Below the pieces are notes generated by a model. The model saw nothing but the letters and a program-made list of their open reading frames with translations, ran no database searches and was not told the origin of the DNA. Of a DNA stretch of 64,000 bases, positions 2,770 to 62,581 are shown piece by piece. How positions within the stretch are numbered: position 1 is the stretch's first letter; the number at the start of each line of letters is the position of its first letter. A program made the translations under genes and the position numbers. Origin of the DNA: an uncultured Bacillota bacterium (GTDB taxonomy: Bacteria > Bacillota > Clostridia > Christensenellales > UBA1242); the NCBI GenBank assembly GCA_900551705.1, contig URWY01000002.1:18053-82052 (forward strand), written 5' to 3'.

Positions 2770-3288
2770 TTATTTATTAAAATATTTTTTGATTATTTTT
2801 GGACAAGCAATTAAAAACCAATAAGAATATTTTTGCGGATTTTTTTCCAAGTCTTGTGCAAGGTCTTCTAAGTTCACCCACTTCACCTTTTCAACTTCGT
2901 CAGGATTGAATTTGATAAGAGAATTGGACTGCGCCGTGAAAACATTATCATATTCATACTCAATCAAATTGTTATCAAATTTATTTCTATAAATAAACGG
3001 AAACTCAAAGTTTAAGTTTTCAATTTCAATGCCTAATTCATCAAAAGTTTTTCGTTTTATGTTTTCAAAAATATTTTCTTCAAGTTGCGGATGTGAGCAA
3101 CAAGCATTTGACCAAAGACCGCCCGAATGATATTTATTTTTTGCTCGTTTTTGAATTAGCATTTGATTGTCTTTTAAAATAAAAACAGAATATGCTTCAT
3201 GAAGCACGCCTTTTTTATGCGCTTCAAGTTTTTCCATTTCACCCTTTTTATTTCCAAAAATATCAACTATAACAACCTTATTATTCAT
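2770..3288 (-). CDS. idi: Isopentenyl-diphosphate delta-isomerase, type 1 (Nudix fold)
   Basis: GVLHEAYSVFI..LIQKRAKNKYHSGGLWSNACCSHPQ resembles the type 1 IDI core containing the catalytic Cys. Confidence 0.7.
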   Translation of the reverse strand: MNNKVVIVDIFGNKKGEMEKLEAHKKGVLHEAYSVFILKDNQMLIQKRAKNKYHSGGLWSNACCSHPQLEENIFENIKRKTFDELGIEIENLNFEFPFIYRNKFDNNLIEYEYDNVFTAQSNSLIKFNPDEVEKVKWVNLEDLAQDLEKNPQKYSYWFLIACPKIIKKYFNK

Positions 3289-3309
3289 GAAATTCCCCCC
3301 GCCCCAATT

Positions 3310-4029
3310 TTATGATGATTTAAGCAAATCTTTCTTCAATCTATCCAAAATTTTCTTTTCAATTCGACTTATGTAACTCTGTGAAATGCCCATCATATCG
3401 GCAACTTCCTTTTGCGTTCGCTCTTCTTTACCTGCAAGACCAAAACGCAAAATCATGATTTCTTGTTCTCTCTCATTTAGCCTTTTTATCGCTTCCCAAA
3501 GCAGTTGTTTTTCAACTGATAAATCCAAGTTTTTAGATACGCTATCTTCTTCGGTATATAAAACATCTGAAAGCAAAAGTTCGTTGCCGTCCGAGTCAAA
3601 GTTTAAAGGTTCGTCAATACTAACTTCCGCTTTTGTTCTCGACACTTTTCTAAGTTGCATCAAAATTTCATTTTCAATGCACCTGCTCGCATAGGTGGCT
3701 AGTTTTATATTTTTGTCAAACTTATATGTTTGCACCGCTTTGATAAGTCCAATCGCTCCAATGGAAATTAAATCTTCAAGTTCAAGACCTGTGCTTTCAA
3801 ACTTTTTTGCTATGTAAACAACAAGCCTTAAATTATGCTCAACAAGCCTAACTTTTGCATTTTCATTCCCTTTGTTCATTTCTTCAATCAAAATTTTTTC
3901 TTCTTCACTATCAAGCGGATTTGGTAACGCTTCATTTCCGCATATATAGCAAACAATATCTTGAATATCTAAAAAATTAATTCCCCTAGAAAATATTTTT
4001 AATAATTTTTTTATTAATTTTTTAATCAT
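3310..4029 (-). CDS. sigE: Pro-sigma-E (mother-cell sporulation sigma factor)
   Basis: Pro-sequence followed by [60 protein letters not shown]. It sits directly downstream of spoIIGA. Confidence 0.9.
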
Positions 4030-11138: not shown

Positions 11139-12314
11139 ATGGATTTATTTAAAAAATGTCAAGACTTCACAAGAATTGAAGATTTAAAATCAATAAACTT
11201 GTATCCATATTTTCATAAACTTGAAAGTAAGCAGGATACTATTGTTGAAATGGAAGGTCATAAAACAATTATGATTGGTTCAAACAACTATCTCGGCTTA
11301 ACTTCTCATCCAGAAGTTATAGACGCAGGAGTTGAAGCACTTAAAAAATATGGCAGCGGCTGTTCTGGTTCAAGATTTTTAAACGGAACTCTTGATTTGC
11401 ATGTCAAACTAGAAAAAGAACTTGCAGAGTTTTTACATAAAGAAGAAGTTGTAACTTTTTCAACAGGTTTTCAATCAAATTTAGGCATTATCAGCGCTAT
11501 TGCCGGTAGAAACGACTATATTGTTTGCGATAAAGAAAACCATGCAAGTATCTATGATGCCTGCAAATTGAGTTATGCAAAAATGTTGAGATATGAACAT
11601 AATAATATGGAAGATTTGGAGCGCCAACTTCAATCTATCCCACAAGATAAAGGTATTTTAATTGTCACAGACGGCGTTTTCTCAATGAGTGGAGAAATCT
11701 GCAACTTGCCAAAAATTGTTGAATTAAAACATAAATATGGCGCAAGAGTTATGGTTGATGACGCGCACGGCTTCGGTGTTATTGGTGAAGGTGGACGCGG
11801 AACAGGTTCGCATTTTAATCTTGAAGACGAAGTTGACATCATAATGGGGACATTTTCAAAATCACTTGCAAGTTTAGGCGGATATATGGCTTCAAGCGAA
11901 CGAGTAGCGAATTATGTCCGCCACAATTCAAGGCCATTTATTTTCAGCGCAAGTATTCCACCTGCAAATGTTGCGTGCGCAAGAAAAGCGTTGGAAATTA
12001 TCAAACGCGAACCAGAAAGAGTTAAAAATTTGCAAGATAACGGCGCGTATGTCCGTGCAGGTCTTGAAAAACGAGGTATTAAATACATTCCAAGCGAAAC
12101 TCCTATCGTTGCCATCTATACTTACGATGATGAAAAAACATTCCTAGCATGCAAAATGCTTTTTGAACGCGGAGTTTATGTAAATCCAGTTGTATCACCT
12201 GCCGTTCCGGTCGGTTCAAGTCTGATAAGAACATCATACACCGCAACACACACTCATAAACAACTTGACGAAGCCATGGACAAAATCAAACAAGTGCTAG
12301 ACGAGATATTATAA
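11139..12314 (+). CDS. PLP-dependent alpha-oxoamine synthase (serine palmitoyltransferase / Kbl / BioF family)
   Basis: Start at MDLFKK with an AAGGAGG RBS. Motifs: LYPYFHKLES, GSNNYLGLTSHP, GSGCSGSRFLNGTLDLH, STGFQSNLG, DDAHGFG, GTFSKSLAS (PLP lysine). Confidence 0.85.
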   Translation: MDLFKKCQDFTRIEDLKSINLYPYFHKLESKQDTIVEMEGHKTIMIGSNNYLGLTSHPEVIDAGVEALKKYGSGCSGSRFLNGTLDLHVKLEKELAEFLHKEEVVTFSTGFQSNLGIISAIAGRNDYIVCDKENHASIYDACKLSYAKMLRYEHNNMEDLERQLQSIPQDKGILIVTDGVFSMSGEICNLPKIVELKHKYGARVMVDDAHGFGVIGEGGRGTGSHFNLEDEVDIIMGTFSKSLASLGGYMASSERVANYVRHNSRPFIFSASIPPANVACARKALEIIKREPERVKNLQDNGAYVRAGLEKRGIKYIPSETPIVAIYTYDDEKTFLACKMLFERGVYVNPVVSPAVPVGSSLIRTSYTATHTHKQLDEAMDKIKQVLDEIL

Positions 12315-12316
12315 AA

Positions 12317-12338
12317 AGAGCCCAACCGGCTCTTTTTT
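12317..12338. terminator. Bidirectional hairpin terminator; left copy of a 22-nt direct repeat
   Basis: AGAGCC-CAAC-GGCTCT followed by T6, between the convergent AOS and SLOG genes. It is 21/22 identical to 13211-13232. Confidence 0.7.
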
Positions 12339-12777
12339 AAATTTCAATTATCTTTTTATTTTTCTTTTGGGCATATTTTACCATTTTATATGCTCCGCTT
12401 TTGTATGGCATCTCAATGTGACAAACTAAAACATCGCAGTTATTAACTATCCATTCATTACGCTTAGTTATTCGCTGCTTTGGGTAATATTGCTCAATCG
12501 GCGGAAATATTGTTTCATCGACAGCCTTTGACAAAAAGAAATTTTCTTTATTATGTTGATAGTGCAACAAAATTCTAACAATTTTTATATAAGGATACTT
12601 TTCTTTTAACTCAACAATAGCATTAAAACATTTTTCGTCAAACGCCCCCTTGTTGCCATCATAAAAAATTGTATAGCCTTGCTGAATAAGTCCTTCAATA
12701 GTTTGAAGAAGTTTTTCTTTAACCCCAATACATCTCCACGAATCACGATGTCCCGCAAACGCAACTACTTTTTCCAT
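12337..12777 (-). CDS. DUF1273/YpsA-like SLOG-domain protein (paralog 1)
   Basis: Start moved to MEKVVAFAGHRD with an AAAGGAG RBS. GHR motif near the N-terminus and a C-terminal NEWIVNNCDVLVCHI..SGAYKMVKYAQKKNKKII segment. Confidence 0.65.
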   Translation of the reverse strand: MEKVVAFAGHRDSWRCIGVKEKLLQTIEGLIQQGYTIFYDGNKGAFDEKCFNAIVELKEKYPYIKIVRILLHYQHNKENFFLSKAVDETIFPPIEQYYPKQRITKRNEWIVNNCDVLVCHIEMPYKSGAYKMVKYAQKKNKKIIEI

Positions 12778-12899
12778 ATAATTCTCCTTTTTGCTCAATA
12801 ATTGTGAAGTAATTATACAACTAAAATGAATTAAATGCAAAATAATAGCCAACTATAATAATGAATAGAAATTGAGTAAAAAGTAAAAAGGAGTTGAGT

Positions 12900-13211
12900 A
12901 TGGATTATTTTAGAAAGATTGATAAAATGCGTGTTGCTCGTGGTTGGTCATTTTATAGACTTAGCCAAGAATCCGGTTTATCTCAACAAACTTTCACTAA
13001 ATGGATGAATGGTAAAACAACACCAACATTACTAGCGTTACAGGCAGTTTGTGACGCATTTGAAATTAGTTTGGCAGAATTTTTTGCCGAAGATGAAATC
13101 ATTGTTGTAACGCCAGAAGTCAAAGAATTATTTAACGATTGGCAAGTCCTAACAAAAGAAGAAAAGGCATCAGTCATGGCAATAGTCAAAAACTATATTA
13201 AAAAAAGATAA
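12900..13211 (+). CDS. XRE-family HTH transcriptional regulator
   Basis: ATG 12900 follows AAGGAG. WSFYRLSQESGLSQQTFTKWMNGKTTPTLLALQAVCDAFEISLAEFF is a Cro/C1-type HTH. Confidence 0.8.
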   Translation: MDYFRKIDKMRVARGWSFYRLSQESGLSQQTFTKWMNGKTTPTLLALQAVCDAFEISLAEFFAEDEIIVVTPEVKELFNDWQVLTKEEKASVMAIVKNYIKKR

Positions 13212-13232
13212 GAGCCCAAGCGGCTCTTTTTT
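13211..13232 (+). terminator. Hairpin terminator; right copy of the 22-nt direct repeat
   Basis: AGAGCC-CAAG-GGCTCT followed by T6, directly after the XRE stop codon. Confidence 0.7.
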
Positions 13233-13234
13233 AT

Positions 13235-13262
13235 TTGCTAATTAGATAAAAAATGCTATCAT
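13235..13262 (+). promoter_or_regulatory. Candidate promoter of truA (TTGCTA-16-TGcTATCAT)
   Basis: Extended -10 TGC TATCAT at 13254-13262. The ATG starts 7 nt after the -10, which implies a leaderless mRNA. Confidence 0.4.
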
Positions 13263-16482: not shown

Positions 16483-16510
16483 AAAAACGCACAATTTTGT
16501 GCGTTTTTTT
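16481..16510. terminator. Bidirectional terminator
   Basis: A7-CGCACA-ATTT-TGTGCG-T7 between convergent genes. Confidence 0.7.
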
Positions 16511-28998: not shown

Positions 28999-31689
28999 TT
29001 ATGCTATCGCGCCAGAATATTTGTAATATTTTCCGCTTGCATCAACAATTCCGTTTTCATTATAAAGCGTGTCATCTACTTTTGTGAAGCCTAAACCTGT
29101 AATTGCTGTCGCATCTGCACTGTCAACATAAATTGTTGTTAACTTGCTGCAACCACTAAATGCACCATATTTAATTGTTGTAACGCTTGCAGGCAATACA
29201 ATACTTTCCAAACTTGTGCAACCATTAAAACAAGAACTTGGTATTGAAGTAATATTTCCTTTAATAACCACTGATGTTAAACCACTGCAATTTCGGAATG
29301 CATAATCTCCAATGCTGGTCACGCTGTTTGGGATTGTGATTGTTGTTAAACCACTGCAACCAGAGAATGCACCATTTCCAATACTAGTTACGCTGTTTGG
29401 GATTGTGATTGTTGTTAAACCACTGCAACCAGAGAATGCCCAACCTCCAATGCTGGTTACGCTGTCTAGGATTGTGATTGTTGTTAAATTACTGCAATTT
29501 CCGAATGCGCCGTCTCCAATACTTGTTACGCTGTTTGGGATTGTGATTGATGTTAAACCTTTGCAAGAGTGGAATGCATAGTTTCCAATGCTGGTCACGC
29601 TACCATCAGTAGGAATAACACTATTTTTACAACCAATAATTAGAGTTTTGCTTGCTGTTTCAATCAAACAATTTCCTGCACTATGATAGTTTGCATTTCC
29701 TTCTGCAACTTTTATTTCTTCTAAAGCACTGCAATATAGGAATGCATTCGTTCCAATGCTGGTTACTTTGTCTGGGATTGTGATTGAGGTTAATCCGTTG
29801 CAACTTTCGAATGCATTCTTTCCAATGCTGGTTACGCTGTCTGGGATTGTGATGGATTTTAAACCGCAATTATAGAATACACGATTTCCAATACTGGTTA
29901 CGCTGTCTGGGATTGTGATGGATTTTAAATCAGTGTAACTAGAGAATGCTCCATCTCCAATGCTGGTCACTGAAAGACCATTTAGTTTTGCAGGAATTTC
30001 ATAAGTTGTACCTGCTGAAATATATCTTGACACACTTAATTCACCATTAGATTTTGCAAATATTGCTTTACTGTCTGTTGCTAAATATGGATTGTTTTCT
30101 GAAATTGTAATAGTAATGCTTGAAACATTAGTTGGCAACCAAGAAGCGTCATTTATTCCAGCGCCAATGCACATTGATGTTAAACCACTGCAATTTCCGA
30201 ATGTCCATTGCCCACCAATGCTGGTTACACTGTCTGGTATTGTAATAGATGTTAAAGCATCGCAACCTGTGAATGCATAATCTCCAATGCTGGTTACGCT
30301 GTTTGGGATTGTAATAGATGTTAAATCAGAGCAATTTTTGAATACTTGATAAAGTTCAGTCACTGCATATTTATTTGAATCCTGACTAATGCCAATAAAT
30401 TTTGGAATATTTACTATTGTTACACCATCGTTAGGAACAAATTTTCTGAGTTTTGCTGTGTAGGTGTTTGTATTTGCATAAGTTGAAGCGCTGAGAGTTG
30501 AAACACTATTTGTTGGAATTGATGAAAGTGTTACGGTATTTCCATTTGAATCTAACAGGTCAAAATACCATGTTCCTTGGTCGTCTGTGTATTGGTATTT
30601 GCCATAAGATGTGTTTGTTGAGTTTTGTGTTACGCCTGTAGGCAAGAAAACTTTAAGATTTGGTTCTGCAACCCTCCAAGCATTGTCTTTACCTGCGGTT
30701 TTGCCTGTTGTGTCTGCATTGATTAATAGATTTGTTGCTTCGGCAGCACCATACCAAATTTTTGCACCTGTAGAAAAAGCATCTGATGCAATTATATATG
30801 TTATATTAGTGCTATTATTAAGTTTTAACCTTAAATTTGTGCAGCCTTCAAACGCTCTTGAACCAATTAATATTGTTTTCATAGCTGTTGGGTCACCTGA
30901 AATTGTGATTTCACCATCTTTTTTGCCTTCTGAGATGATGTCGTCAATATTAATTTCTGGTTTTTCTTCTGTTGTAACATCAACTTCAATTGGTTTAACA
31001 ACTTCTGTTATTTTCCAACCTTCTGCTGCTGCGTCTGCATCGCCTTGGAGCGTTTCGAGTGTGAGATAAACTTCAATTTTGTTGATTGATGTTGTTCCGT
31101 CAACAAAACCGCCACCTTCTAGGTCGTTAGAACCTTTAAAGCCTTCACCTTCAATGACAAACTTTGCATCTGTTGCAAACAAATCTACAAATGTTGTTGC
31201 TGTTTTTGCAAACTTGTTTAGAGTTGAACCTGTTGCGTAGTAAAAGTAGCCGTCACCGGACCCTACCCAGTTTGTGCCAAAGAAACTTGAACTCGTTTTT
31301 ATTAACTTTGTTGCGTCAGCGAGTTCAACTGGCGTTTCTCCGTTGTAAAACTTATACGATAGTTTTACTCTTGCATAAAAGTTGACAGATTTCTCGTTCG
31401 CTCTTATGCCTGCTGCATTGACTGTAATCTCTTCACCTGGTTGGGCGTTTGTTTCGTCAAACAACAAAAATGTGGTTGTTGTTTCGCGCGTCCAAATGCC
31501 TTCGTCTGGTGTTTTGCCAAAACCTTTGTAGTCAATGATGATACCTTGATCCATGCTCAATGTACCTGTGGCTTGACGCTTTGCTTGATAGAAAGCTCCA
31601 GTGATACCAATTGCGAGCGCCAGGCACAACAAAAGCGCTACTGCAATGATTGCCACTTTTAGGCTTCTTGTTTTTGTTTTATTATTCAT
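28999..31689 (-). CDS. Large secreted/surface protein with BspA-type leucine-rich repeats
   Basis: Start moved to MNNKTKTRS with an AAGGAG RBS. N-terminal hydrophobic signal followed by ITGAFYQAKRQATGTL. Many 23-aa units of the form LTSITIPNSVTSIGDYAFxGCSG. Confidence 0.85.
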   Translation of the reverse strand: MNNKTKTRSLKVAIIAVALLLCLALAIGITGAFYQAKRQATGTLSMDQGIIIDYKGFGKTPDEGIWTRETTTTFLLFDETNAQPGEEITVNAAGIRANEKSVNFYARVKLSYKFYNGETPVELADATKLIKTSSSFFGTNWVGSGDGYFYYATGSTLNKFAKTATTFVDLFATDAKFVIEGEGFKGSNDLEGGGFVDGTTSINKIEVYLTLETLQGDADAAAEGWKITEVVKPIEVDVTTEEKPEINIDDIISEGKKDGEITISGDPTAMKTILIGSRAFEGCTNLRLKLNNSTNITYIIASDAFSTGAKIWYGAAEATNLLINADTTGKTAGKDNAWRVAEPNLKVFLPTGVTQNSTNTSYGKYQYTDDQGTWYFDLLDSNGNTVTLSSIPTNSVSTLSASTYANTNTYTAKLRKFVPNDGVTIVNIPKFIGISQDSNKYAVTELYQVFKNCSDLTSITIPNSVTSIGDYAFTGCDALTSITIPDSVTSIGGQWTFGNCSGLTSMCIGAGINDASWLPTNVSSITITISENNPYLATDSKAIFAKSNGELSVSRYISAGTTYEIPAKLNGLSVTSIGDGAFSSYTDLKSITIPDSVTSIGNRVFYNCGLKSITIPDSVTSIGKNAFESCNGLTSITIPDKVTSIGTNAFLYCSALEEIKVAEGNANYHSAGNCLIETASKTLIIGCKNSVIPTDGSVTSIGNYAFHSCKGLTSITIPNSVTSIGDGAFGNCSNLTTITILDSVTSIGGWAFSGCSGLTTITIPNSVTSIGNGAFSGCSGLTTITIPNSVTSIGDYAFRNCSGLTSVVIKGNITSIPSSCFNGCTSLESIVLPASVTTIKYGAFSGCSKLTTIYVDSADATAITGLGFTKVDDTLYNENGIVDASGKYYKYSGAIA
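29130..30330 (-). repeat. Tandem in-frame repeats of about 69 nt encoding the LRR units
   Basis: CGCTGTTTGG recurs at 29322 and 29391 (period 69), with long near-identical stretches (GGGATTGTGATTGTTGTTAAACCACTGCAACCAGAGAATGC). Confidence 0.85.
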
Positions 31690-43729: not shown

Positions 43730-43806
43730 GCGCTAGTAGCTCAGTTGGATAGAGCAGTGCCCTTCTAAGGCAAAGGTCAGGGGTTCGAATCCCTTCTGGC
43801 GCACCA
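43730..43806 (+). tRNA. tRNA-Arg (anticodon UCU)
   Basis: Manually folded. Acceptor GCGCTAG/CTGGCGC, anticodon loop CTTCTAA, T-arm AGGGG-TTCGAAT-CCCTT, encoded CCA. Confidence 0.9.
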
Positions 43807-43809
43807 AAC

Positions 43810-43957
43810 GCAAATTGTCGGGCTTTTAGCTCGATTTTTTGTTTATGCAAAAAATGCAGCGCATTGATGCCCGCAATTTGCTTATTACCGACCAAACGCG
43901 AAATTGTATTACAATTTCGGTCGGTACTCTCATGCGAAGTGATTGCTACGAAGATAT
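43810..43957 (+). repeat. Copy A of a ~148-nt structured element (candidate ncRNA or dispersed repeat)
   Basis: Near-identical to 45246-45392. It forms two long helices and contains a terminator-like hairpin TCGGGC-TTTTA-GCTCGA followed by T6. Confidence 0.85.
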
Positions 43958-44231: not shown

Positions 44232-44260
44232 TTGACTACTTTTTTTATATATGTTATCAT
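44232..44260 (+). promoter_or_regulatory. Sigma-A-type promoter of the phosphorylase gene (TTGACT-17-TGtTATCAT)
   Basis: TTGACT at 44232-44237 and TATCAT at 44255-44260. Confidence 0.55.
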
Positions 44261-44276
44261 ACCCATGGAGAAAATT

Positions 44277-45038
44277 ATGCTTTTAGAAGAATTTGATGAG
44301 AACAAAATCGCCGTTTTAAACGCAAGTAATATAGTTAAAAAAAATGATGAAATGCCAAAAACAATCGTTTCATTTTTTGAACATAAGTTATTTGATATGT
44401 TTTTAGAGAAATTTAAGCCAGAACAAATCACGGAAATTGGTTGTGCTGTGAAAATCCACCCAATTTATAAAGTAAATTTTGAAGGCAAAGAAATTGCAGT
44501 AATACAAGCAGGCATTGGCGAACCTTATTGCGTTTCAAACTTTGAAGAAATTATTGAACTTGGTGTTGAAAATATTTTACTTTTTGGTTCGTGTGGTTCA
44601 TTGATACCATTAAATGCATGCTCAGTTATTGTGCCTTACGCCGCACTTAGAGATGAAGGCACAAGTTTTCACTACGCTCCACCTAGCGATGAAATCGAAC
44701 TTGATGCTAAATTAGTAAAAAATCTTTGTGCTTTCTTTAAAAATAAAGGCATAAAATATGAACTTGGTAAAACCTGGACTACCGATGCTTTTTATAGAGA
44801 AACACCAAAAAAAGTTGAAAGTCGCAAAAAAATGGGTGCAATTTGTGTAGAAATGGAATGTGCAGGCATGACAGCAATGTGCAAATTCAGAAATGTAAAT
44901 TTCGCAACATTTTTCTATACAGGCGATAGTTTGGCAACTGGTGAATGGGACAAAGGTAGTCTTTCGCATTTAAAACTTGAAGGTAAAGATATTTTAGTTC
45001 CTTTGGCATTTGAAGCCGCAAACACTATTTTTGATTAA
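44277..45038 (+). CDS. Nucleoside phosphorylase, PNP/UDP family 1 (uridine phosphorylase-like)
   Basis: ATG 44277 lies 6 nt after GGAG. IAVIQAGIGEPYCV, LFGSCGSL, ALRDEGTSFHY and ICVEMECAG. Confidence 0.75.
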   Translation: MLLEEFDENKIAVLNASNIVKKNDEMPKTIVSFFEHKLFDMFLEKFKPEQITEIGCAVKIHPIYKVNFEGKEIAVIQAGIGEPYCVSNFEEIIELGVENILLFGSCGSLIPLNACSVIVPYAALRDEGTSFHYAPPSDEIELDAKLVKNLCAFFKNKGIKYELGKTWTTDAFYRETPKKVESRKKMGAICVEMECAGMTAMCKFRNVNFATFFYTGDSLATGEWDKGSLSHLKLEGKDILVPLAFEAANTIFD

Positions 45039-45165: not shown

Positions 45166-45240
45166 TGGGGTGTCGCCAAGCGGTAAGGCATGGGACTCTG
45201 ACTCCCACATTCCTAGGTTCGAATCCTAGTACCCCAGCCA
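45166..45240 (+). tRNA. tRNA-Gln (anticodon CUG)
   Basis: Acceptor TGGGGTG/TACCCCA (G7:U66 wobble), anticodon loop CTCTGAC, T-arm CTAGG-TTCGAAT-CCTAG, encoded CCA. Confidence 0.9.
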
Positions 45241-45245
45241 GAAAA

Positions 45246-45392
45246 GGAAATTGTCGGGCTTTTGGCTCGATTTTTTTATGCAAAAAAATGCAGCGCTTTT
45301 TCGCCCGCAATTTCCTTCTTACCGACCAAACGCGAAATTGCTTAACCAATTTCGGTCGGTACTCTCATGCGAAGAAATTGCTACGAAGATAT
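45246..45392 (+). repeat. Copy B of the ~148-nt structured element
   Basis: Aligns along its whole length with 43810-43957, apart from a few substitutions and small indels in loops. Confidence 0.85.
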
Positions 45393-45398
45393 TAAAAA

Positions 45399-45632
45399 TT
45401 AATCGTCTATATTTTTAAAGATTGGATCTGAGAAGAATTCTTCTAATGTAATCTCCAATGTGCAACATATTTGATAAACCGTATCTGTGCTAACTCTATT
45501 TTTCTTATTATTTATTACATCACAAATCGTTGAACGAGGAATTCCGCCTCTTTTGTATAATTCATATTGCGAAAATCCCCTTTCTGCTAATAAATTTTTA
45601 ACTTTTATTCCTATTGCTTCTGATAATTTCAT
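45399..45632 (-). CDS. XRE-family HTH transcriptional regulator
   Basis: FSQYELYKRGGIPRSTICDVINNKKNRVSTDTVYQICCTLEITLEEFF; AGGAG RBS. Confidence 0.8.
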   Translation of the reverse strand: MKLSEAIGIKVKNLLAERGFSQYELYKRGGIPRSTICDVINNKKNRVSTDTVYQICCTLEITLEEFFSDPIFKNIDD

Positions 45633-45771
45633 TTTATAACTCCTATAACGCTCGCTATTTAGAATTATAAAATTTGTACAAAAATATTCAGTCCGCTAGT
45701 CAGAACGCTTTGTATTTTTTTAATTATAGGTTAAAATACCATAGTCCGCTATGCGGAATTATGGTAGAATT

Positions 45772-46251
45772 ATGGATATAAAAACAACATTTATAGGTCA
45801 CCGCAATGTTTGCACGGATATTGTTCGTGATAATTTAAAAAAAGTAATTGAAGACGAAATAAAAAATGGTTGCGTGCACTTTATTGTTGGTTCGCATGGT
45901 AATTTTGATAGAATGGTATTGAGTGTATGCAAAGAATTAAAAAATAAATACCAAAATCTTATAATTGAAGTTGTTATAACAAGTTTAAATTCAATCAAAA
46001 AACATATTGAATATGATATGTTCGGTAAAATTGTATACGAACCTTATGAAAATATAAATACGATTATGTATGAAATTGAACAAGAATATTTTAAAAAACA
46101 AATAATAGTTAGCAACAAAAAAATGATTGAAGAATGTGATTTGCTAATTTGTTATGTTGACACATCACGCGTTAGAAGTGGCGCAAAAATTGCATATAAT
46201 TATGCTAAAAAATTAGGAAAACGTATCATTAACTTATATACAACAAAATAA
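45772..46251 (+). CDS. DUF1273/YpsA-like SLOG-domain protein (paralog 2)
   Basis: MDIKTTFIGHRN..HFIVGSHGNFD..NKKMIEECDLLICYV..SGAKIAYNYAKKLGKRII is collinear with 12337-12777. The start could instead be 45751. Confidence 0.65.
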   Translation: MDIKTTFIGHRNVCTDIVRDNLKKVIEDEIKNGCVHFIVGSHGNFDRMVLSVCKELKNKYQNLIIEVVITSLNSIKKHIEYDMFGKIVYEPYENINTIMYEIEQEYFKKQIIVSNKKMIEECDLLICYVDTSRVRSGAKIAYNYAKKLGKRIINLYTTK

Positions 46252-46286: not shown

Positions 46287-46949
46287 TTAAGTGTTTGGAT
46301 TTGCTGCAACTGCGGTTGGGAACAATGGCAAGTCTGCAATTCCTGGACAAACTGTTGTTTGTGTTTGTTGACATGGTGGGATTACTGGGTATCCGTATGA
46401 TGGCACAAGCATATCAACTGTTGCAACAACTTTTAAGATAACTTGAATACAACCTGTCATTGTTGCTGTGTTACCTTCTGTATTGATTGAACCAATCGTT
46501 GATGAGAATGCACCAAATGCGGTTATTTCAATAGGTGTAACTGAAGGTTGTGGCACAAACAATACAACATTTCTTGTTTCCGTTACAACTCCGTCTGCTG
46601 TTCCGAGAACACCATTTGCATCACGATAAGATACAACTACCGGAATATTCACAGTTGCTGAAACATTGGCAAAGTTTGGTCTATTGTCAATTCTATCAAT
46701 GACGACATCAGTAACTGTTGCTGGATTTGTTGGGTCAGAAGACGCTGAAATGAATGTTAATGGATTTGTTGGTGCTGCTGGGTCAAAATTTGTAAGCGTT
46801 ACTGTAACGCCTGTGTTTGTTATAATTGACCTACACGCATCAAACACTTTTCTAACTTCTATAAGTGCTTTTTCACAAAGCCCAGATGTTGGATTTCCGC
46901 AAATTGGGCCGGGTCTGCATTGGTTATTATTATTGATATAAAAAGACAT
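46287..46949 (-). CDS. Cys-framed, Thr/Val/Pro/Asn-rich beta-type protein; candidate spore coat or appendage structural protein
   Basis: ATG 46949 lies 5 nt after AGGAGG. N-terminal CRPGPICGNPTSGLCEKALIEVRKVFDAC, a beta-rich body, and a C-terminal TGC..LVPSYGYPVIPPCQQTQTTVCPG. No signal peptide. Confidence 0.8.
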   Translation of the reverse strand: MSFYINNNNQCRPGPICGNPTSGLCEKALIEVRKVFDACRSIITNTGVTVTLTNFDPAAPTNPLTFISASSDPTNPATVTDVVIDRIDNRPNFANVSATVNIPVVVSYRDANGVLGTADGVVTETRNVVLFVPQPSVTPIEITAFGAFSSTIGSINTEGNTATMTGCIQVILKVVATVDMLVPSYGYPVIPPCQQTQTTVCPGIADLPLFPTAVAANPNT

Positions 46950-47017
46950 TTCCACCTCCTACACGAAAACTGCGATTTTTCTATCAATAATAAAATATGT
47001 AAGAGTGTGAAAATGTG

Positions 47018-47362
47018 TTACAAAACAATTATAGTTATTCCAGGATTTTGTTTACCCAAGTCTTCGTCAAGCGAAGCAAATTTACAATTCGTAAGAAATT
47101 CAAAGCAATCTGAATTTTGAATTGCCCATTCAGCACCAGTGAAAACATTTTTAATTTTCTTTTGATGTTTCAGTCTTGTGGCGTATTGTCTTAAATTGAT
47201 ACAAATTTTTCCGCCCTGTCCATGCGAGCCATAACCATGAATGATTTTAAAGCCCTTTACGCCTTGTGCTTTTGCTTTTTCAATTTCCATGTCTAAATAA
47301 ATACCTGCATCTTCTGCGGCAAAAACTATTTCCTTAAAGTTGACTGTGTAAAAATCATTCAT
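47018..47362 (-). CDS. Smr-domain-like protein
   Basis: GFKIIHGYGSHGQGG and the C-terminal NPGITIIVL resemble the Smr core. The N-terminal DLHG motif is not evident. Confidence 0.45.
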   Translation of the reverse strand: MNDFYTVNFKEIVFAAEDAGIYLDMEIEKAKAQGVKGFKIIHGYGSHGQGGKICINLRQYATRLKHQKKIKNVFTGAEWAIQNSDCFEFLTNCKFASLDEDLGKQNPGITIIVL

Positions 47363-62454: not shown

Positions 62455-62576
62455 TAAAAAATCCGCCATGATGGCGGATAAAATTTTATTATGCCATCAA
62501 TCAAGCATTAGCACCTTACCTTGCGGCAGGTTGCTGTGCGGTCATCAGGCTTGCCCCTCGCGCACTCTAAATGGTA
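62455..62576 (-). promoter_or_regulatory. SAM-I (S-box) riboswitch with an intrinsic terminator, in the leader of metK
   Basis: The minus strand reads ..UUAGAGUGCGCGAGGGGCAAGCCUGAUGACCGCACAGCAACCUGCCGCAAGGUAAGGUGCUAAUGC.., which holds the conserved GAGGG, GAUGA, AGCAACC and GGUGCUAA blocks. It is followed by AUCCGCCAUCAUGGCGGAU and U5. Confidence 0.85.
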
Positions 62577-62581
62577 ATTTT

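Follow-up and report, generated by a model that had tools for sequence, protein, structure and literature searches.

A recurring divergent pairing of an XRE regulator with a YpsA-like SLOG protein in gut Clostridia, a possible conflict or growth-arrest module

Introduction

The YpsA-type SLOG family is large and without known biochemistry. Overproduction of YpsA blocks cell division (PMC6459960), and YpsA-like domains are predicted in nucleotide-centred conflict systems (PMC6459960, PMC9503650). In this study, we analyzed 64,000 nucleotides (nt) of DNA from an uncultured Bacillota bacterium (contig URWY01000002.1, positions 18,053 to 82,052; hereafter the window), in which two genes for YpsA-like SLOG proteins (SLOG1, SLOG2) each lie divergent from the gene of a small XRE-type helix-turn-helix (HTH) regulator (XRE1, XRE2). 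We found the same two-gene unit in related genomes, and we give an even chance to the reading that it is a self-contained accessory module, in which the XRE protein represses a YpsA-type SLOG protein that would serve as a conflict or growth-arrest effector.

The window proteins share with the YpsA/YoqJ family (PF06908) the fold, the G-H-R motif after strand 1, the glycine-rich loop with a conserved acid and the SGA loop before the last helix. Members of that family are likewise stand-alone proteins of about 150 amino acids (aa), and one homologue is publicly named 'phage-like protein YoqJ'. However, the window proteins score below the family cut-off and carry the motif G-x-F-D, not G-x-D/E. 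They also lack gpsB synteny, since pair 1 neighbours an oxoamine synthase, the XRE gene and truA. Their divergent XRE pairing is outside the four neighbourhood types of the 2019 YpsA-family summary (GpsB, phosphoribosyltransferase, NAD-salvage and mixed conflict contexts), which includes no HTH pairing (PMC6459960).

A second comparison is ShosA, a SLOG/DprA-like protein in the two-gene conflict module Shosta (ShosTA) (PMC11961720, PMC12961424). ShosA is the second-best structural match to SLOG1 (8zva, template modelling (TM) score 0.71) and a weak PADLOC match, but no phosphoribosyltransferase (ShosT) neighbour was found in the window, nor at any of 33 related loci. ShosA has about 300 aa and acts as an antitoxin via binding of single-stranded DNA (ssDNA) and RecA, whereas in the window SLOG is paired with a transcription factor and is itself the sole candidate effector.

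In the DicA-DicB pair of cryptic prophages, an XRE repressor faces a repressed cell-division inhibitor. The likeness lies in an XRE repressor divergent from a small accessory gene, of which overproduced relatives inhibit division; DicB is unlike SLOG in sequence and fold, and the analogy is architectural only. C-protein-controlled restriction-modification (R-M), CapH/CapP-CBASS and BrxR/WYL-BREX resemble the locus in having a dedicated small HTH regulator beside a costly effector, and phage 'morons' and regulator-gated defence genes resemble it as autonomous promoter-to-terminator units between unrelated genes. Unlike these, the locus has no known defence effector and no protease partner, and the PADLOC models do not support membership in a named system.

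The divergent pairing is conserved across genomes

A scan of one genome per species yielded 230 relatives, of which the best 80 loci were examined. Nearly all of these come from gut Clostridia and from metagenome-assembled genomes. XRE neighbours were found by an iterative search seeded with the two window proteins, followed by Pfam confirmation on representatives, and pairing was counted over the 69 loci whose upstream sequence spans 600 nt or more. We identified a divergent XRE gene within 400 nt at 33/69 loci, which corresponds to 33/35 outside one XRE-less branch. The orientation was divergent in all 33 modules, and Pfam HTH_3 was matched by 21/23 partner representatives. No third conserved gene was found in the 33 loci (163 other neighbouring open reading frames (ORFs) fell into 148 clusters), and the conserved unit is two genes, nothing larger. 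The most frequent recurring neighbour group was a prophage holin/amidase cassette, adjoining about six modules.

The original prediction had pointed to a second copy of the pair 33 kb from the first and had taken the recurring pairing for an undescribed system. The second copy is XRE2/SLOG2, divergent across 139 nt, and the neighbourhood survey extends the adjacency well beyond this genome. The pairing is absent from PADLOC v2 and from the searchable literature, a coverage that does not take in the 2015 SLOG survey. The pair, a YpsA-type SLOG protein with its own HTH regulator, makes a credible candidate for a new module of a conflict or regulatory kind.

Several divergent copies may occur in one genome, as with the two window pairs and with L053, L055 and L064, which share a genome. 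In Monoglobus pectinilyticus (L119, NZ_OY725739.1, 2308-3447), two tandem 80-aa HTH regulators are divergent from a gene annotated 'SLOG family protein' (RefSeq/PGAP). Tandem double XREs are also present at L048, L053, L057, L064 and L080.

Another kind of dedicated regulator adjoins the SLOG family at L117, a human-faecal phage-like scaffold (MT835511.1, 25580-32023). Here, a 157-aa SLOG homologue (ORF 2989-3462) lies 25 nt downstream of a WYL-WCX (BrxR/CapW-type) regulator (ORF 1981-2964) on the same strand, an arrangement that resembles BrxR/WYL-gated defence genes.

Organization and control region of the first pair

Pair 1 occupies the following positions of the window (no strand is assigned to the hairpins and the control region).

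Up to 12314: alpha-oxoamine-synthase gene, ending at 12314, convergent with SLOG1
12312..12339: left terminator hairpin, copy 1 of the direct repeat, AAAAAGAGCC-CAACC-GGCTCTTTTTTA
12337..12777, minus strand: SLOG1, YpsA/YoqJ-like SLOG protein, 146 aa, ATG start
12778..12899: divergent control region, 122 nt
12900..13211, plus strand: XRE1, Cro/C1-type HTH regulator, 103 aa, with a C-terminal helical extension
13210..13236: right terminator hairpin, copy 2 of the direct repeat, AAGAGCC-CAAGC-GGCTCTTTTTTATT (loop then arm also given as CAAGC-GGCTCTTTTTT)
From 13269: truA

Both genes are as originally described, namely a 146-aa protein with an FxGHR motif and a CDxLxC...SGA C-terminus, and an XRE HTH gene transcribed divergently across 122 nt. 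SLOG1 begins with MEKVVAFAGHR, which contains AFAGHR, and ends with KYAQKKNKKIIEI; its C-terminal part reads CDVLVC...SGAY...KYAQKKNKKII.

XRE1 passes the Pfam gathering cut-offs of both HTH_26 (PF13443; 44.1 bits against 22) and HTH_3 (PF01381; 35.9 against 23). It also matched an RstR-type phage repressor model over its full length at a sub-threshold score, and the DicA model weakly (E 0.07). The PADLOC-DB v2 defence models for capH and for control proteins were weakly matched by the XREs.

The predicted SLOG1 promoter on the minus strand consists of a -35 element TTTGCA (12836-12841) and a -10 element TATAAT (12812-12817). Beside the two ribosome-binding sites lies a 12-nt inverted repeat, TTTTTGCTCAAT (12788-12799) and ATTGAGTAAAAA (12871-12882), which is a candidate XRE1 operator. 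This repeat is perfect in L112 and L114, two relatives with the pair at the same site, and the control region is better conserved than the flanking genes among same-site relatives that are ~82-84% identical. No Rfam match was found in or beside either module.

The SLOG protein is a divergent relative of YpsA

An AlphaFold (AF2) model of SLOG1, built on 19 homologues, reached a predicted local distance difference test (pLDDT) score of 91.7 and a predicted TM (pTM) score of 0.87. Foldseek placed B. subtilis YpsA first (2nx2, E 4.6e-8, TM 0.79), then ShosA, and further matches in the PDB were DprA, the Moco carrier protein (MCP), LOG enzymes and the ThsA SLOG domain. A sequence-profile search of the PDB also returned 2nx2 first (E 1.6e-3). 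Since the model is confident and both the structural matches and the sequence profile put YpsA first, the predicted SLOG fold, with YpsA as the nearest solved structure, is a sound assignment. The proposed placement in the DUF1273/YpsA branch therefore holds, though the Pfam YpsA/DUF1273 matches, while significant, are under the gathering cut-off of 27.7 bits (SLOG1 24.6, SLOG2 27.2). Many homologues carry a precomputed PF06908 match and some representatives pass the cut-off (30.2 and 31.7 bits), and by these scores the window proteins appear to be a borderline, divergent YpsA subfamily. Searches of NCBIfam and PHROG gave weak or sub-threshold matches (PRK13660 and phrog_289 'GTP-binding domain') and no name beyond YpsA-like.

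By profile, the family comprises 7,619 clusters (50% identity) at E <= 1e-3 and 2,652 at E <= 1e-10. Its members are almost all stand-alone proteins of 140-190 aa; among the best 150 family representatives, the ten longest contained no domain fusion and showed only YpsA matches near the cut-off. Among 60 family representatives, the signature residues in SLOG1 numbering are F7, G9, H10, G41, G44, F46, D47, K58, N107, D115, G128, A129 and A136, and H10, D47, K58, N107 and D115 are at least 90% conserved. The signature can be written F-x-G-H, G-x-x-G-x-F-D, K58, R-N-x-W, D115 and G-A. In YpsA, E55 is the acid of the proposed substrate-binding GxD/E motif (PMC6459960). The family has G44-x-F46-D47 at this position; D47 aligns with E55, and the glycine (YpsA G53) is displaced by one residue.

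The window SLOG proteins also show faint echoes of DprA, nucleoside deoxyribosyltransferase and ShosA. A different reading is a counter-defence or DNA-handling function of mobile elements. The SLOG protein would then degrade or sequester host immune nucleotide signals, or bind ssDNA as a mediator of the DprA/ShosA kind. Most SLOG domains of phages are YpsA-like, with a predicted role against cyclic ADP-ribose (cADPR)-type signals (PMC9503650), and in phages of Bacillus and Streptomyces, distant relatives carry DUF1273 or DprA-like annotations. ShosA and DprA are close structural matches, and the SLOG proteins are basic (isoelectric point ~9). However, the DprA/Smf (PF02481) score of SLOG1 is 14.4 bits against a cut-off of 29.6 and covers the C-terminal 50 residues only, and the sole PADLOC match of SLOG1, to ShosA (E 0.003), spans 52 residues in its C-terminal third. 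There is no ShosT partner, most modules are chromosomal and outside recognisable mobile elements, and a dedicated repressor suits an anti-defence gene of a lytic programme poorly. We regard this reading as quite unlikely.

XRE partners and their putative operators are exchanged as a block

To compare the histories of the two partners, we correlated XRE and SLOG similarity over 33 modules and found no correlation (Spearman rho 0.09). For one SLOG cluster, the partners can come from as many as five XRE clusters. The clearest case is L001, a sister strain with flanks of ~97% DNA identity, where a SLOG 97% identical to SLOG1 stands at the same site beside a different XRE. The replaced block corresponds to window positions 12780-13203, its breakpoints falling at the start codon (ATG) of SLOG and the stop codon of XRE. 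The XRE of L001 has 79 aa and is not related to XRE1, and the intergenic region was exchanged too, carrying three GGGTTA(N4)TTAACC-type repeats. Modules with an 80-aa XRE likewise share ACTC-N7-GAGT over the -35 element and a TGnTATAAT -10 element, despite unlike flanks. These comparisons indicate that the XRE and its putative operators move as one block, exchangeable under the same SLOG gene. Because they travel together and are swapped under an unchanged SLOG, the link between the two genes points to promoter control rather than to a protein-protein antitoxin.

A toxin-antitoxin-like module was among the possibilities originally raised. In a type II system, direct XRE binding would neutralise a SLOG toxin and the locus would be kept by addiction. 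XRE-HTH proteins are common antitoxins, and XRE1 and XRE2 gave weak matches to the HipB, Y4mF, HigA and PezA antitoxin models. A small, mobile cassette and the toxicity of overproduced YpsA to cell division (PMC6459960) would fit such a system. However, such systems have co-transcribed, co-evolving partners, and here the genes are divergent in 33 modules and their similarity is uncorrelated, with unrelated XREs beside near-identical SLOGs. In addition, an entire sister branch is without XRE, and one species contains a natural deletion allele. The free exchange of XRE partners speaks against the toxin-antitoxin reading, which we consider quite improbable.

Terminators flank the pair and an allele lacks it

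The original prediction had described near-identical 22-nt hairpins on both sides of the pair. We found AGAGCCCAACCGGCTCTTTTTT (12317-12338) and AGAGCCCAAGCGGCTCTTTTTT (13211-13232) to be 21/22 identical and in direct orientation. The 22-mer has just these two matches in the 64-kb window at <=3 mismatches, and 0 matches were found in 100 shuffles. Both hairpins consist of a stem-loop and a T-run, abut stop codons and have folding energies of -10.5 to -14.1 kcal/mol; they are intrinsic (Rho-independent) terminators. The left hairpin is bidirectional (-12.3 kcal/mol on one strand, -14.1 on the other) and is shared by SLOG1 and the oxoamine-synthase gene, which converge on it. The T-run of this hairpin overlaps with the stop codon of SLOG1. 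The right hairpin, found by a terminator scan, begins at the XRE1 stop codon and terminates XRE1 before truA.

At the empty allele L085, the pair is absent between flanks 99.0% and 97.5% identical to those of L112. Its layout is the synthase gene, a single hairpin with the same stem (AGAGCC-GAAA-GGCTCT), ~60 nt and truA. Because L085 has near-identical flanks and no pair, the pair is dispensable and polymorphic within a species. L085 retains ~15 nt resembling the SLOG 3' end, and this allele is probably a secondary deletion, not a virgin site. The same site is occupied in L112 and L113 (SLOG 77% identical) and in L114 (87%), each with a 103-aa XRE. Judged from these sequences, the insertion at the window site is old, common to lineages ~82% identical in DNA. 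The flanking hairpins vary among these relatives. They are 22/22 identical in L114, 21/22 identical in the window and L001, and unlike in L112 (AGAGCC-GAAA-GGCTCT versus ATAGCC-ACTC-GGCTAT on the right).

Near-identical terminators flank the module at five independent sites, the window and L074, L067, L046 and L076, each with its own sequence. At L074, the repeat is ~120 nt long and includes a fragment of the XRE 3' end. Flank scores within these loci are 19-110, compared with a maximum of 13 in 420 position-shifted control pairs and of 16 in 1190 cross-locus terminator pairs (trivial window/L001 pairs left out). The flanking repeat was not seen in 29/35 modules.

These data also bear on the suggestion that the two hairpins are ordinary look-alike terminators with no bearing on the cassette. 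Both are canonical intrinsic terminators, those of L112 differ, and most modules have no flanking repeat. Against this, the 21/22 match is unique in 64 kb, the pattern recurs with other sequences at four further sites with scores above those of the controls, and alleles without the pair carry one hairpin of the same stem. Such a coincidence is very improbable.

At the L067 site, L122 is without SLOG and XRE and has one copy of the same hairpin. We rejected it as a clean empty site, since the M20 peptidase gene is also absent. L124 is occupied, but its hairpin on the EngB side differs. Because of this, the identity of the flanking hairpins appears to be lineage-specific, and a single old target-site duplication is unproven. 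For L074, an empty site was sought through the neighbouring RNA ligase, whose nearest relative (77% identical) shows no synteny with the locus. The hairpin pair at 16489/18026 was rejected as a further example (79% identical, one copy inside coding sequence).

An integron cassette with attC sites was also rejected, the hairpins being target-derived, locus-specific terminators that are single in alleles without the pair. They are 17-nt stems with T-runs and are not cassette-borne. No integrase or cassette array is adjacent in the window, where attC core-site motifs had no formal search, and the unit encodes no recombinase. From their sequences, the hairpins look like host terminators of which a copy comes to lie on each side of the cassette, not like cassette-specific sites. 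The terminator may be duplicated at the moment of insertion, the pairs may arise from excision and re-integration through the repeats, or one terminator may be converted by the other.

Thus, the idea of a self-contained cassette gains from the empty allele and the recurring flanking repeats, but the insertion is old and its hairpins derive from the target. Similarly, terminator pairs do mark boundaries at four more sites, but with a sequence of their own at each. The concern that the 22-nt hairpin is simply a common terminator does not apply, as it has two copies in 64 kb and a related strain without the pair has one. Locus-specific duplicated terminators around a recombinase-less cassette hint at an insertion/excision route beyond transposon or integron models.

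An XRE-less sister branch resides in defence islands

Among the XRE-less loci, 34/36 form one branch, which is the closest to SLOG1 (60-66% identity). The sister-branch gene is flanked by variable same-strand R-M genes upstream and by variable opposite-strand genes downstream. Its neighbours fall into 97 clusters, of which the commonest are C5 and N6 methyltransferases, ResIII, GmrSD/HNH, AbiEii and AAA_21/AAA_15. OLD-TOPRIM with UvrD, HipA, Fic, SIR2 and T5orf172 are also common, and some of these genes are Gabija-like. PADLOC matched AbiL, AriA and many methyltransferase models among these neighbours. A tyrosine recombinase is the most frequent single neighbour of the sister-branch SLOG, and one of the islands continues into a type II-A CRISPR-Cas locus. 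This defence-island setting is the main argument for a conflict role, and as guilt by association it makes that role credible.

Upstream of the XRE-less SLOG in L002-L037 and relatives (e.g. L021:3740-3990), we identified a 13-nt perfect inverted repeat, ATTCTAACGATAG ... CTATCGTTAGAAT. Its arms are 111-114 nt apart in 24 loci, and covarying variants are TCAAACGATAG/CTATCGTTTGA and TTCTTATGATAG/CTACCATAAGAA. The loop and 3' arm of the upstream operon's terminator form the left arm of the repeat, and the inner segment has a forward promoter-like site. The repeat is a candidate inverton or DNA-looping switch in place of the XRE repressor. An inverton test found no flipped copy in the 24 XRE-less loci, and a pattern scan of viral contigs was empty.

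The second pair and its surroundings

The second pair lies 33 kb from the first.

45399..45632, minus strand: XRE2, Cro/C1-type HTH regulator, 77 aa
45633..45771: divergent control region, 139 nt
45772..46251, plus strand: SLOG2, SLOG1 paralogue, 159 aa
46252..46279, plus strand: terminator hairpin 3' of SLOG2, CCCCTT-TAACTA-AGGGG then a T-run

SLOG2 is 31% identical to SLOG1 (E 3e-14), and public gene calls start it at an alternative upstream ATG (45751). No similarity between XRE1 and XRE2 was detectable by BLAST, and both pass the HTH_3 and HTH_26 cut-offs (XRE2 46.3 bits for HTH_26 and 36.3 for HTH_3). The XRE2 type (77-91 aa) is the commonest SLOG partner among the related loci. An (A)GTCCGCTA-type motif occurs three times in the control region (45649-45664, 45690-45705, 45743-45758). 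The SLOG2 hairpin has no counterpart on the XRE2 side, and the flank score of this pair, 8, is at background level.

The pair neighbours tRNA genes and a 222-aa ORF. The GC content is 25.6% for SLOG2 and 28.6% for XRE2, compared with 31.5% for pair 1 and 33.4% for the window. Since pair 2 is clearly under the window average and pair 1 near it, this suggests that pair 2 is the more recent acquisition.

A direct repeat of ~150 nt, 84-96% identical and without Rfam match, is present at 43806-43957 and 45242-45392. Each copy directly follows a tRNA gene (Arg-TCT 43730-43806, Gln-CTG 45166-45240), and the second ends 7 nt from the XRE2 stop codon. The copies bracket tRNA-Gln (TTG, minus strand), a PNP_UDP_1 phosphorylase ORF (44232-45038), tRNA-Val and tRNA-Gln. 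The repeat may have arisen by duplication of a tRNA-trailer region, or it may be the scar left beside pair 2 by another insertion. The 222-aa ORF directly downstream of SLOG2 (46287-46955, minus strand) has no Pfam match, and the ORF at 47018-47362 (minus strand) has a weak, sub-threshold match to the Smr domain.

A proposed mechanism and its alternatives

We propose that repeated or palindromic sites within the divergent promoter region (120-140 nt) are bound by the small XRE repressor, which would thereby hold the stand-alone YpsA/YoqJ-type SLOG off and probably autoregulates. A signal, possibly phage infection or stress, would lift the repression and let the SLOG protein accumulate. SLOG would then bind or process a nucleotide ligand, possibly of the NAD/ADP-ribose type, and the outcome may be growth or division arrest, or interference with the invader. 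The module would move between genomes and settle beside intrinsic terminators, the terminator then standing on both sides at several sites. In this scheme the fold and the genomic pattern are the observed ground, and we infer the repression, the ligand, the cellular effect and the trigger.

Several points weigh against this reading. The ORF calls in the compared loci were crude, and all operators proposed here were read from repeats and conservation. Both SLOG proteins stay below the PF06908 cut-off; SLOG2 had no PADLOC match at E <= 0.01, and neither protein fits a known system model. The association with defence genes applies directly to the sister branch only, and most XRE-linked modules have housekeeping rather than defence genes around them. 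At the window site, the divergence of the pair (SLOG 77% identical) is close to that of its flanks (TruA 80%), and because the two have co-diverged, it appears to be stably inherited there, which fits a mundane physiological role too.

Such a role would make SLOG a YpsA-like division regulator or nucleotide-metabolism protein with a local transcription factor, and the defence neighbours of its relatives incidental. YpsA proper is chromosomal and linked to cell division (PMC6459960), and vertical inheritance across the ~82% identical lineages and the many loci between housekeeping genes agree with this. However, the modules are patchily distributed, single genomes carry several divergent copies, presence and absence vary within a species, and some modules stand at prophage ends. 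The low GC content of SLOG2 and XRE2, the lack of a GpsB neighbour and the strict location of the XRE-less branch in defence islands, with neighbour clusters dominated by R-M and abortive-infection genes, also argue against it. We consider the physiological role unlikely.

A more specific version of the module reading is a tentative and rather doubtful one. It holds that the pair is a minimal single-effector conflict module (anti-phage/abortive-infection or division-arrest), with SLOG unleashed by derepression, and that it spreads as a cassette with no recombinase of its own, inserting at terminators and duplicating them. The sister branch would be its counterpart in integrase-linked defence islands, with a candidate invertible or looping switch. 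If confirmed, the pair would be among the smallest regulator-plus-effector defence systems in gut Clostridia, a group thinly covered by defence catalogues. For the YpsA-type SLOG family, the naturally gated two-gene form offers an experimental handle.

Other features of the window

Tandem repeats with a 69-nt period occupy positions 29130-30390 (9 copies of a 138-nt unit, 60-86% identical), in an apparent coding region for a repeat protein. An S-adenosylmethionine (SAM) riboswitch (S-box) lies at 62491-62577 on the minus strand, with 50.3 bits, above the Rfam gathering score.

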